Source: Escherichia coli
GTDB lineage: Bacteria; Pseudomonadota; Gammaproteobacteria; Enterobacterales; Enterobacteriaceae
Direction: 5' to 3' (one strand)
DNA: 64,000 bases
Assembly: GCF_036507355.1 (NCBI RefSeq)
Contig: NZ_AP027877.1
Part shown: positions 6,689 through 53,994 of the stretch, piece after piece
How the letters are laid out: each line of letters opens with the position of its first letter
Position numbering within the stretch: the first letter of the stretch is position 1
Translations under genes and position numbers: made by a program
Notes under the pieces: generated by a model
Database searches by the model: none
Told to the model about the DNA's origin: nothing
The model's input: only the letters and a program-made list of their open reading frames with translations

Positions 6689-7669
6689 ATGCTGACACTT
6701 GCCCGCCAACAACAGCGACAAAATATTCGCTGGTTATTATGCCTGTCAGTTTTGATGCTGCTGGCGCTTCTCTTAAGCCTTTGCGCCGGTGAACAATGGA
6801 TCTCGCCAGGTGACTGGTTTTCTCCTCGTGGCGAACTGTTCGTCTGGCAAATTCGCCTGCCACGTACGCTGGCTGTATTGCTGGTTGGTGCGGCGCTGGC
6901 TATATCCGGCGCTGTAATGCAGGCGTTGTTTGAAAATCCTCTGGCAGAACCTGGACTACTTGGCGTCTCTAACGGCGCAGGCGTGGGGCTTATCGCCGCG
7001 GTATTGCTTGGGCAAGGGCAACTCCCCAACTGGGCGCTAGGGCTGTGTGCGATTGCTGGGGCGCTTATCATCACTTTAATACTCTTACGTTTCGCCCGTC
7101 GTCATCTTTCGACCAGTCGGTTATTGCTGGCTGGCGTTGCATTAGGGATTATCTGTAGCGCACTAATGACGTGGGCTATCTACTTTTCCACCTCTGTTGA
7201 TTTACGTCAGCTGATGTACTGGATGATGGGCGGTTTTGGCGGCGTAGACTGGCGGCAAAGCTGGCTGATGCTGGCATTGATCCCCGTGTTGTTGTGGATC
7301 TGTTGTCAGTCCAGGCCGATGAATATGTTAGCACTTGGCGAGATCTCGGCGCGGCAACTGGGTTTACCCCTGTGGTTCTGGCGCAATGTGCTGGTGGCAG
7401 CGACCGGCTGGATGGTTGGCGTCAGTGTAGCGCTGGCGGGTGCTATCGGCTTTATTGGTCTGGTGATCCCACATATTCTTCGGTTGTGTGGTTTAACCGA
7501 TCATCGCGTATTACTTCCCGGCTGCGCGCTGGCAGGGGCGAGCGCATTGCTGCTGGCCGATATTGTAGCGCGCCTGGCATTAGCTGCCGCAGAGCTGCCT
7601 ATTGGCGTGGTCACCGCAACGTTGGGTGCGCCGGTGTTTATCTGGTTATTGTTAAAAGCAGGACGTTAG
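6689..7669 (+). CDS. btuC: Vitamin B12 ABC transporter permease
   Basis: 326-aa hydrophobic protein [34 protein letters not shown]... Confidence 0.93.
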
Positions 7670-26396: not shown

Positions 26397-27155
26397 TTAT
26401 GCCTGATGTAAAATAGTTAATACTGTGCGCAAATCATTTACCGAGATTTGCCCTGGCGCAGAGGCTTTTTTTACCGCACCAAAAGTTGCCGCCGAGCCAA
26501 ATACTTCACCAGCCAGACGAGAAATTACGCCAGTTTTTGCCATCGACATCGTGATGATTGGACGATCGGCATACTGCTCCTGCATCTCCAGGGTCGCGGC
26601 AAGCAACGTCAGCACATCGCTGGTACTTTGCGGCATCAGCGCAATCTTAGGAATATCGGCGTCGAAGGATTGCATTTTGCGCAGACGGGCAATGATTTCT
26701 TCGGCTTCCGGCGTTTTATGGAAGTCATGGTTGGACATGACAACTTTCACATCATGCGCGTGGGCGTAGGCGACGGTTTCTTTAACCTGATCATCGCCGG
26801 TAAATAACTCCAGATCGATCATATCAACCAGGCCGCTGTCGATGGCTGCACGATTGAGTGCAATATAAGCCTCGGTGGAAATCGCCTGCTCGCCGCCTTC
26901 TTTGGCACTGCGGAAGGTAAACAGCAGCGGTTTTTCTGGCATGGTTTCACGGAGAATTTTTGCCGCCGCCATGACAGACTCCACATTGGAGAGGTCGGCA
27001 AAGTGGTCCACACGCCATTCCAGAATATCAAAGTCCGCTTCACGATAGGCGAGAGCTTCGGATTTCACGCGGGCGATATCTTTCGCCATCAGCGAGACGA
27101 TGATTTTAGGTGCGCCCGTACCAATGACGAGATCTTTTACAGTTACGGTTTTCAT
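26397..27155 (-). CDS. aroD: 3-dehydroquinate dehydratase (type I)
   Basis: 252-aa [39 protein letters not shown]... Confidence 0.93.
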
Positions 27156-27185
27156 TTTTTACCCTTTCTGCACGCGGTCAGCCTG

Positions 27186-28052
27186 TCAGGCACCGAACCC
27201 CATGACCTGTTTAACATATTCCAGAGGGAAATCTTTGCCAGTCCATAACGTGAACTGTTCAGCCCCTTGCCACAACAACATGCCGTATCCATCAATCGTT
27301 TTGCAACCAGCTTGTTGCGCCTGCCGCAATAACTTCGTCATATGCGGGTTATACACGCATTCAGTGACCAGCAGTCCCGGATGTAACAGACTGATATCAT
27401 TAACTAATGATTCATTCTCAAGGGGTTTCATACCCACTTTTGTGCCATTGGTTAAAATGTCGGCGGAAGCCAGGGCTTCAGCAAAGGCTTGCTGATCGGC
27501 GAGATCGGTAACCGTGACGACACAATCGGTGTTTTCGTTAACCCGCTGCGCGAAGGCGAGGGCTTTATCGAAGAACTCATCCCGACGGTTAAAGAGTTTA
27601 ATTTCTTTTAAACCTTCAATTGCCCCCTGCGCGCCAATCGCCGTTGAGGCACCTCCGGCCCCTAACAGCACCATCGTTTTGCCTTTGATATCAAAACCGC
27701 TCTCTTTAATGGCGCGAATATGGCCCGTGCCGTCGGTGTTATAGCCACGCAGATAGCCATCATCATTAACGATGGTGTTGATGGCACCCACCAGTTTGGC
27801 TGCTGGCGTTAATTCATCAACATATTCACACGCCAGTTGTTTGTTCGGCATTGATACGCCAGTTCCGCGCATTTTTAGAGCTTTTAATCCTTCAATTGCT
27901 CCGGGAAAGCTATCGTTATCCACTTCGAAGGCCATATAGGTAAATGGCAATCCCGCTTTTTCTAAGGCTTTATTCTGCATTTCAGGCGATAAACTGTGGC
28001 GGATAGGATAAGCCATCAACCCAATCAATTCGTATTTTGCGGTAACATCCAT
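27186..28052 (-). CDS. ydiB: Quinate/shikimate dehydrogenase
   Basis: 288-aa [39 protein letters not shown]... Confidence 0.92.
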
Positions 28053-28063
28053 AATTAACTCCT

Positions 28064-29065
28064 TTAACCTCTATGCTTAATTGTGTTTAACCGGGTGCTA
28101 AATTTGCGCTCGCCAAACCGCACATCATTCTCAGGAATAATAAAAACGCGGTAATAGCGGATAAAAACAATAATTGCGGTAATCAGGGCCAGCAGCGCGA
28201 AAGTAAAATCGAGAACAATGATATATTGCAGGCCGATGTTCGACAGATAACCGGTAATCAGCGGAATAACAAAGTTAGCCAGTCCACCCATCATCATATA
28301 AATACTGGTGACTTTGGCTTTGCTTTTTGGGAAAAACTCTGACATGACCGAAACACCGAGCTGTAAAATGCCGCCAGCTGCTGAGAAACCGATAACAAAG
28401 GCGCCGGCATTACACACCAGTGGAGAAGGGTACAGGTAGATAATGGCTGCTGTTATTGTTGCCAGTGCAGAGTTAAATACATTAGCCCAGATGGGCCGGA
28501 CCATTTTTTTCAGTAGTGCGGCAAAAATAAAGACACAGACCAACGAGCCCATACTGTAATAAGAGATGGTTTTTAATGCCTCAGCTTCTGACATACCAGC
28601 AAAAGCCATCGCATATTTGGGCATCCACACCACAATCACATAAAAGGTCGAGAATGCGGCTACACCGAACAGTACCGATGAAACACCTTCCAGCCAGACT
28701 AACGGTTTGCTGTTCATTTGCGGTAATTCATTAGCTACGCTGGCGTCCACCAACTGGCTGGGGAATTTGCTTTTCAACAGCATCAGCGTGATCAGTACAA
28801 ACAGAATACCCGGAATAATCAGCCCATAGCCGTACCAGATATTATTGAGCAACATATAGCTCACCAGCATTGGGTAGAACATTTGCCCGAATGACACCAT
28901 CGCTTTAACCAGTATGACCGCCGAACCAGAGGCTTTCGGAAAGCATTCCATGAGCGCGGGGTAGCCACCCGTATCCAGCGCTGAGTTAGCGATACCTACG
29001 CACACTGCCAGACCGTAGGCGAGAGTTAAATTCGGGCAAGCGGGAATACCAAAGAAGAATAGCAG
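28064..29065 (-). pseudogene. ydiN: MFS transporter ydiN, 5'-truncated by IS1 (C-terminal ~330 codons remain)
   Basis: The MFS reading frame runs without a stop straight into the IS1 left end at 29066 (...LLFFFGIPACPNLTLAYGLAVCVGIANSAL...); the track 'start' at 29005 is an internal GTG. Confidence 0.8.
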
Positions 29066-29120
29066 GGTGATGCTGCCAACTTACTGATTTAGTGTATGAT
29101 GGTGTTTTTGAGGTGCTCCA

Positions 29121-29396
29121 GTGGCTTCTGTTTCTATCAGCTGTCCCTCCTGTTCAGCTACTGACGGGGTGGTGCGTAACGGCAAAAGCACCGCCGGACA
29201 TCAGCGCTATCTCTGCTCTCACTGCCGTAAAACATGGCAACTGCAGTTCACTTACACCGCTTCTCAACCCGGTACGCACCAGAAAATCATTGATATGGCC
29301 ATGAATGGCGTTGGATGCCGGGCAACAGCCCGCATTATGGGCGTTGGCCTCAACACGATTTTACGTCACTTAAAAAACTCAGGCCGCAGTCGGTAA
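29121..29396 (+). CDS. insA: IS1 InsA
   Basis: 91-aa [43 protein letters not shown]... Confidence 0.95.
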
Positions 29397-29818
29397 CCTC
29401 GCGCATACAGCCGGGCAGTGACGTCATCGTCTGCGCGGAAATGGACGAACAGTGGGGCTATGTCGGGGCTAAATCGCGCCAGCGCTGGCTGTTTTACGCG
29501 TATGACAGGCTCCGGAAGACGGTTGTTGCGCACGTATTCGGTGAACGCACGATGGCGACGCTGGGGCGTCTTATGAGCCTGCTGTCACCCTTTGACGTGG
29601 TGATATGGATGACGGATGGCTGGCCGCTGTATGAATCCCGCCTGAAGGGAAAGCTGCACGTAATCAGCAAGCGATATACGCAGCGAATTGAGCGGCATAA
29701 CCTGAATCTGAGGCAGCACCTGGCACGGCTGGGACGGAAGTCGCTGTCGTTCTCAAAATCGGTGGAGCTGCATGACAAAGTCATCGGGCATTATCTGAAC
29801 ATAAAACACTATCAATAA
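29315..29818 (+). CDS. insB: IS1 InsB frame, expressed as the InsAB' transposase by -1 frameshift
   Basis: InsB reading frame; A6 slippery run at 29372-29377 inside the insA 3' end. The 5' boundary is frame-defined only. Confidence 0.85.
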
Positions 29819-29924
29819 GTTGGAGTCATTACCCAGCTTGCTGACGGCTTGAAGAGAGTCACAGTATCTTGTGCAACATTATTGGAAAGAGTGAGGGGCG
29901 AGGTAGCGAAGCGGAAAAATGTTA

Positions 29925-30029
29925 AAAAAAAGCCCATCGTGGGAGATGGGCAAAGACTACACACAGCAATTCGTTGTTTCACTCAGGGGATTTCCATGCT
30001 TATAAATCAATATGTTGATTTATAACCGT
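29925..30029 (-). ncRNA. rprA: Small RNA RprA (positive regulator of rpoS translation)
   Basis: Minus strand ACGGTTATAAATCAACATATTGATTTATAAGCATGGAAATCCCC...CCCACGATGGGCTTTTTTTT recognised as RprA, with -10 TACTAT at 30036-30041 and an intrinsic terminator. Confidence 0.85.
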
Positions 30030-53810: not shown

Positions 53811-53887
53811 TGGTGCGTCCGAGTGGACTCGAACCACCGACCCCCACCATGTCAAGGTGGTGCTCTAACCAACTGAGCTACGGACGC
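53811..53887 (-). tRNA. valW: tRNA-Val (anticodon GAC)
   Basis: Reverse complement GCGTCCGTAGCTCAGTTGGTTAGAGCACCACCTTGACATGGTGGGGGTCGGTGGTTCGAGTCCACTCGGACGCACCA; valV/valW assignment is by position only. Confidence 0.9.
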
Positions 53888-53891
53888 AGGA

Positions 53892-53968
53892 TGGTGCGTT
53901 CAATTGGACTCGAACCAACGACCCCCACCATGTCAAGGTGGTGCTCTAACCAACTGAGCTATGAACGC
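53892..53968 (-). tRNA. valV: tRNA-Val (anticodon GAC)
   Basis: Reverse complement GCGTTCATAGCTCAGTTGGTTAGAGCACCACCTTGACATGGTGGGGGTCGTTGGTTCGAGTCCAATTGAACGCACCA; 4-bp spacer to the second copy. Confidence 0.9.
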
Positions 53969-53994
53969 AACGTTGTAGGTGACAACGGGGACGA

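Follow-up and report, generated by a model that had tools for sequence, protein, structure and literature searches.

Replacement of ydiL, ydiM and the 5' end of ydiN by a single IS1 in Escherichia coli: a probable IS1-mediated adjacent deletion

Introduction

Gene loss linked to IS1 has been known since the 1970s. IS1-promoted adjacent deletions were reportedly described in the classical gal and Tn9 systems by Reif and Saedler in 1975, and Turlan and Chandler are said to have described such adjacent, i.e. replicative, deletions in 1995 (cited in PMC12428005). Intramolecular target-primed transposition, which is typical of IS1 and Tn9, leaves the element without direct repeats (PMC9330008, section 5.2.1), while IS1 is known to transpose replicatively within the chromosome, with usual target-site duplications (TSDs) of 8–9 bp (PMC12428005). 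Missing TSDs are ascribed either to adjacent deletion or to recombination between two IS copies (PMC11708052). In the long-term evolution experiment, all IS150 deletions examined (14/14) arose stepwise, i.e. as two-step adjacent deletions, from an earlier insertion (PMC11708052).

Here we analyse an IS1 in a 64-kb stretch of E. coli DNA (64,000 nucleotides, hereafter the window), for which an earlier note had proposed that the element marks an adjacent deletion of ydiL, ydiM and the start of ydiN. No literature linking ydiM or ydiN with IS1 was found.

Structure of the rearranged locus

A complete IS1 of 768 bp with intact ends lies exactly at the coordinates given in the earlier note (Table 1), and its termini at 29066 and 29833 read GGTGATGCTGCCAACTTACTGAT ... 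ATCAATAAGTTGGAGTCATTACC, i.e. the canonical sequences. IRL and IRR are identical at 18 of 23 positions, as expected of the imperfect terminal inverted repeats of around 23 bp that characterize IS1. The −1 frameshift site A6C (AAAAAAC) is located at 29372–29378, and the reconstructed InsAB' fusion of 232 aa scores 245 bits against the NCBIfam model NF033558 ‘IS1 family transposase’ (cutoff 100). The element shares 99.74–99.87 % identity with the RefSeq ‘IS1-like element IS1A’ copies of W5-6 and strain 81, both of which show 9-bp duplications at the same termini as those of the window IS1. Judged from its sequence, i.e. both ends, insA/insB' and the frameshift site, the element looks transposition-competent. 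It is the only IS1 copy in the window, which harbours no other IS element.

The 9 bp on either side, GAATAGCAG and CAGCTTGCT, are unrelated, as had been noted, and have only CAG in common; a repeat search around the IS1 found no longer direct repeat between the flanks. Thus, the 8–9-bp TSD, a find of which the earlier note had listed as evidence against a deletion, was looked for and is absent. Since such a duplication marks the event of simple insertion and not the element itself, its absence signals a deletion. The shared CAG was considered both as a 3-bp duplication and as the trace of a microhomology join, and rejected in both roles, as both copies are kept and the flanks lie 2.2 kb apart in relatives.

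In E. coli K-12 MG1655 the gene order is indeed ydiK-rprA-ydiL-ydiM-ydiN-ydiB-aroD. The window flanks align to K-12 up to the last base before each IS1 terminus, window 29065 corresponding to K-12 1,772,776 and window 29834 to K-12 1,770,567 (the window minus strand is the K-12 plus strand). A BLAST overrun of 7 nt at the right junction is due to a chance similarity of the ancestral GATAATG to the IS1 end GGTAATG. According to this alignment, K-12 1,770,568–1,772,775 is absent and replaced by the IS1, which bears out the proposed loss of ydiL, ydiM and the 5' end of ydiN; its size, previously put at roughly 2 kb, is exactly 2,208 bp, made up of 47 bp of the rprA–ydiL spacer, ydiL, ydiM, the ydiM–ydiN spacer and ydiN codons 1–88. 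Two smaller figures had to be corrected, i.e. the loss from ydiN is not about 100 codons long, and the IS1 starts 90 bp, not 91 bp, past the annotated rprA 3' end.

What remains of ydiN are 333 codons without a start, preceded by an in-frame stop six codons upstream, within IS1. The longest ORF in this remnant encodes 313 aa from a GTG at 29005 and gives a weak match to the MFS; elsewhere it was found only in unrelated contexts, i.e. frameshifted ydiN and chimeric or adapter-ended contigs. For the 56-aa ORF across the right junction, no exact protein is on record. The strain has therefore presumably lost ydiL, encoding an Aca2/YdiL-like HTH protein, and ydiM, encoding an MFS exporter, while ydiN, encoding an MFS transporter, is probably inactivated. 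Downstream, ydiB would be deprived of any promoter upstream in ydiN, and since no outward promoter was predicted from IRL towards ydiN'-ydiB, it may be less expressed. In contrast, rprA, ydiK and aroD appear untouched by the rearrangement; RprA is full length, covering positions 1–108 of the Rfam model RF00034 (118.5 bits, gathering score 70).

Table 1. Features of the rearranged locus (window coordinates) and junctions of IS1-linked deletions in other genomes (positions on the K-12 locus L001, given as IRL-side / IRR-side junction)
Feature	Position	Strand	Remarks
aroD and ydiB, both intact	26397..28052	-	ydiB 27186–28052, aroD 26397–27155; downstream of truncated ydiN
ydiN remnant, codons 89–421 and stop	28064..29065	-	promoter, start codon and codons 1–88 gone
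Left 9-bp flank GAATAGCAG	29057..29065	.	inside ydiN; K-12 1,772,776–1,772,784, other strand
IS1, complete, IS1A-like, 768 bp	29066..29833	+	IRL 29066–29088, IRR 29811–29833
insA and insB'	29121..29818	+	insA 29121–29396, insB' 29315–29818; both frames open
Right 9-bp flank CAGCTTGCT	29834..29842	.	rprA–ydiL spacer; last kept base is K-12 1,770,567
rprA–ydiL spacer remnant, 90 bp	29834..29923	-	deleted part began with the region's most AT-rich tract
rprA small RNA gene, intact	29922..30029	-	terminator hairpin 29932–29951 (terminator scan)
ydiK, intact, 370 aa	30215..31327	-	right of the rearrangement
NH-21	5735 / 4559 (L001)		single IS1, non-matching flanks, deletion
HCP30S3_I2	4759 / 4557 (L001)		single IS1, non-matching flanks, deletion
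MB50	8436 / 4579 (L001)		single IS1, non-matching flanks, deletion
HH107	5841 / 5682 (L001)		single IS1, non-matching flanks, deletion
2017.17.03CC	5659 / 4784 (L001)		single IS1, non-matching flanks, deletion
LR-29-1	5046 / 4842 (L001)		single IS1, non-matching flanks, deletion
22AR0118	6919 / 5015 (L001)		single IS1, non-matching flanks, deletion
17MR471	7004 / 5918 (L001)		single IS1, non-matching flanks, deletion
2022CK-00450, second IS1	7390 and 6581 (L001)		inverted copy, deletion

Ancestral state and occurrence of the allele

The rest of the 64-kb window is collinear with K-12 1,736,403–1,801,840 at 98.7–98.9 % identity and, outside the IS1 site, shows only five indels, each of a single base and intergenic. 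Among the 17 listed contigs with a YdiJ or YdiF identical to that of the window, ydiL-ydiM-ydiN is in place in nearly all, the window's deletion is found in none (0 of 17), and the one contig checked (L019) has the same 2,208 bp between the two junction positions. This collinearity, together with the retention of ydiL-ydiM-ydiN in most of the contigs sharing YdiJ or YdiF, indicates that the window deletion is the derived state. That ydiL and ydiM might never have lain between rprA and ydiN in this lineage, the other objection foreseen in the earlier note, does not hold, since both are there in relatives. A Shigella origin was considered and is unlikely, given the single IS, the lack of frameshifts and the five intergenic single-base indels compared with K-12. 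A tandem pair of 81 bp with 92 % identity at 53811–53969 is ordinary, i.e. the adjacent tRNA-Val genes valV/valW of K-12.

Among 5,426 complete E. coli genomes, junction-centred searches gave no exact match to either window junction, and the exact junction patterns were also absent from the GTDB species-representative genomes and the JGI metagenome contigs. In the genome collections searched, we found neither a precursor with a simple IS1 insertion at either window junction nor a genome with two directly repeated IS1 at both window junctions, each with its duplication. As far as these collections reach, the window allele thus appears to be private, the type of event being common.

The best flank identity to any complete E. 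coli genome over 25 kb is around 99.2 %, and the contigs with the exact YdiJ or YdiF share 97.5–99.2 % DNA identity with the window over long alignments. The window's YdiJ (1018 aa) and YdiF (531 aa) each match a very common allele exactly at the protein level; therefore, the divergence in both genes is entirely synonymous. Going by these identities, the source lineage appears unrepresented in the genome collections searched.

Recurrent IS1 events between ydiL and ydiB

Many IS1 insertions were mapped onto the K-12 locus (L001), their positions being given as IRL-side and IRR-side junctions. IS1 is present in the ydiL–ydiN interval of at least 58 complete genomes, i.e. 32 with the element in the window's orientation and 26 with the opposite one. 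Between ydiL and ydiB, at least 14 independent IS1-linked deletions were found, each marked by one IS1 whose two flanks do not match (Table 1), and alleles with IS1 plus a deletion are about as common in the interval as simple insertions. An apparent orientation bias, i.e. deletions being commoner in the orientation of the window IS1, was dropped, as opposite-orientation deletions occur in ST361, in the YZ22PE strains, which provide further IS1-linked cases, and at the second IS1 of 2022CK-00450.

The clearest case is a nested series of five genomes that share an IS1A–ydiM IRL junction at L001 6060 and whose shared flanks are 99.9 % identical. Strain 81 (L028 4601–5368) carries a simple IS1A insertion in ydiM with the 9-bp TSD CTTTAGCGT, KMi029 and 2022CK-00450 (L014, L029) are deleted from the IRR end to 5484, and 1008S19 and N9 (L013, L030) from the IRR end to 5047. 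To judge by these junctions, the series has the textbook signature of IS-adjacent deletions, in which one end stays fixed while the other shifts.

In strain ST361 (L041 5313–6080), an opposite-orientation IS1A stands in place of ydiM, ydiN and the 5' portion of ydiB. The same spacer offset is occupied by an IS1 in around 40 complete genomes of the ST361 clone, most of them clinical, the deletion having been examined in one of them, and this site could serve as a lineage marker.

Two TSD-bounded IS1 copies within the interval were found in one genome only (L2_E1649). These copies are inverted and therefore cannot delete the DNA between them, and having been seen only once, such double insertions are too rare to have regularly preceded the deletions.

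Two of the genomes in Table 1 show additional rearrangements. HCP30S3_I2 (L004 2148–2261) has a second deletion from ydiM (L001 5811) to ydiB (8030), with no IS1 match and around 110 bp at the join that do not align to K-12. In NH-21 (L002 1501–2268), another IS1 whose flanks do not match separates aroD from a truncated gene for an AMP-binding enzyme, adjacent to ppsA; this implies a further IS1-linked deletion of DNA carrying ydiF through fadK in K-12.

Choice of end points

Of all 40-mers between ydiK and aroD, the richest in AT (80 %) directly adjoins the rprA-side junction of the window, and the ydiN junction lies within a 72 % AT stretch. In NH-21, HCP30S3_I2 and MB50 (L002 6806, L004 4081 and L005 4081), the IRR end of the deletion-linked IS1 lies 9–11 bp from the window's rprA-side junction, and the IS1 variants concerned share 96.7–99.2 % identity with the window IS1. 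As these three rprA-side deletions carry different IS1 variants and have different distal end points, they represent independent events. Four of the 11 IRR-side junctions thereby fall within 23 bp (window 29834–29856, corresponding to L001 4557–4579), with P ~0.001 under uniformity, a value inflated by the fact that two of the four were found by a junction-centred query. The edge of the AT-rich tract 3' of rprA hence looks like a preferred end point of IS1 deletions. Near-coincident junctions of independent events also occur at L001 5046/5047 and around 4784.

Simple insertions were found close to both sites. At the ydiN side, W5-6 (L003 4074–4841; window 29050–29058) has a simple IS1A insertion, in the same orientation as the window IS1 and with the duplication CAAAGAAGA, 7 bp from the window junction. 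At the rprA side, no simple IS1 insertion of either orientation turned up at a distance of up to 11 bp from the window junction, and simple insertions of both orientations lie at L001 4611–4618, on the far side of the AT tract. Given insertions and deletions near both sites, both junctions are ordinary IS1 targets, and target preference is therefore silent on which of the two came first.

As to local sequence, CTG is present at both end points of the ancestral sequence, in which the deleted segment begins with ATAATGT (K-12 L001 4569–4575) and ends with ATAATGTAT (6768–6774). ATAATG resembles the IS1 terminus GGTAATG, and ATAATG/CATTAT is found no more than 12 nt from six of the 26 IS1 junctions mapped, compared with a background of 5 % (post hoc, P ~0.002); this enrichment weakens when both junctions of the window itself are left out.

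Assuming uniformity and around 12.7 IS1 matches per genome, around 69 genomes would be expected to carry IS1 in the interval. The observed 58 argue for neutrality of its IS1 load. A convergent, selected loss of ydiL, ydiM and ydiN, e.g. of the Aca2-like YdiL regulator or of the two MFS transporters, is accordingly improbable in our view. That reading draws on the at least 14 independent deletions and dozens of simple insertions, including the globally spread ST361, as well as on the AT-rich tract 3' of rprA as a preferred deletion end point, which four independent lineages share within 23 bp.

Origin of the deletion

We consider that the window allele probably arose by IS1-mediated adjacent deletion, i.e. 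by intramolecular replicative transposition, as the earlier note had proposed. As expected of an adjacent deletion, the IS1 is intact, its termini coincide exactly with the end points of the deletion, and a duplication is lacking. In such an event, one of today's junctions, that in ydiN or that in the AT-rich spacer 3' of rprA, would first have received a simple IS1 insertion. Transposase would then have joined the IS1 ends to a second target on that chromosome, at a distance of around 2.2 kb. The circle released, unable to replicate, would have taken with it the 2,208 bp, one IS1 and a single copy of each target repeat, leaving one IS1 between unrelated sequences. Both the order of the two steps and the role of transposase are suggested by analogy with the nested series at the same locus. 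Adjacent deletion is favoured by this series, by deletions being about as common as simple insertions, by the lack of direct double insertions and by the literature.

The same end product could have come from homologous, RecA-dependent recombination between two direct IS1 copies, one in ydiN and one in the rprA–ydiL spacer, leaving one hybrid IS1. The outcome is indistinguishable, i.e. one IS1 between flanks that do not match, the deletion ending cleanly at its termini; both window sites are demonstrated IS1 targets, and recombination between IS copies is a frequent cause of missing duplications (PMC11708052). Nonetheless, we regard this route as rather unlikely, considering that the more than 58 genomes with IS1 in the interval include a single TSD-bounded pair, which is inverted, that deletion alleles rival simple insertions in number, and that the strain-81 series deletes successively from a fixed IS1 end with no second copy. 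Very unlikely is an assembly artefact, in which repeat collapse across the IS1 would have dropped the 2.2-kb segment, the true locus being intact or carrying two IS1. IS1 is multicopy and a classic site of collapse, and the evidence from the source genome is limited to 64 kb, but the full 768-bp element is resolved inside otherwise collinear sequence, and the same architecture recurs in many independently finished genomes. Equally remote is a one-step event in which a break in the DNA captured a new IS1 copy as the deletion formed, without a staggered target cut, a type of event proposed for IS5 and IS481 (PMC11708052). It would account for the missing duplication and for the lack of a precursor insertion at the rprA-side site, where all four same-orientation IS1 copies within 11 bp are deletion junctions, and CTG occurs at both ancestral end points. 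However, both CTG copies are kept, unlike in the product of a microhomology-mediated join, the mechanism is itself unproven and was proposed for IS elements other than IS1, and the two-step route is directly documented at the ydiL–ydiB locus by the strain-81 series.

The allele adds one more case of IS1 eroding non-essential parts of the chromosome. The many natural deletions, including that in a successful clinical clone, indicate that the ydiL–ydiB interval is dispensable. For the strain, the outcome is that three dispensable and poorly characterised genes, those for YdiL, YdiM and YdiN, are lost, and that ydiB expression has possibly dropped. Repeated IS1 events in this interval are useful as a strain marker and call for caution when annotating the region. 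The deletion itself raises no new question.

Comparison with known systems

The phenomenon is already known, and it recurs independently many times at the ydiL–ydiB locus. As in the classical IS1-promoted deletions, the window IS1 is intact, the deletion starts exactly at its terminus, the duplication is lost, and the missing DNA amounts to a few kilobases of neighbouring, dispensable sequence. Unlike those systems, the window represents a natural chromosomal allele for which no precursor was seen, so that transposase dependence and the anchored end can only be deduced.

A closer parallel is the series of strain 81, KMi029, 2022CK-00450, 1008S19 and N9, which shares the locus and the IS1 orientation with the window, its IS1 differing by 1 nt, and in which the deletions likewise run from the IRR end towards rprA. 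In contrast to the window, this series keeps a precursor with a 9-bp duplication and a shared IRL junction, its deletions extend from 6060 to 5484 or 5047, and ydiL and ydiN are intact. In NH-21, HCP30S3_I2, MB50 and ST361, part of ydiL–ydiB has given way to one IS1 with flanks that do not match, as in the window; however, the distal end points lie elsewhere, i.e. in ydiM (NH-21), ydiL (HCP30S3_I2) and ydiB (MB50), while in ST361 the IS1 has the opposite orientation and ydiL is kept.

The IS150 deletions of the long-term evolution experiment also lack duplications, and they were shown to arise in at least two steps from an earlier simple insertion, often growing with time (PMC11708052). They differ from the window allele in that IS150 belongs to the IS3 family, with another transposition chemistry, and in that they come from laboratory populations with a known time series (PMC11708052).
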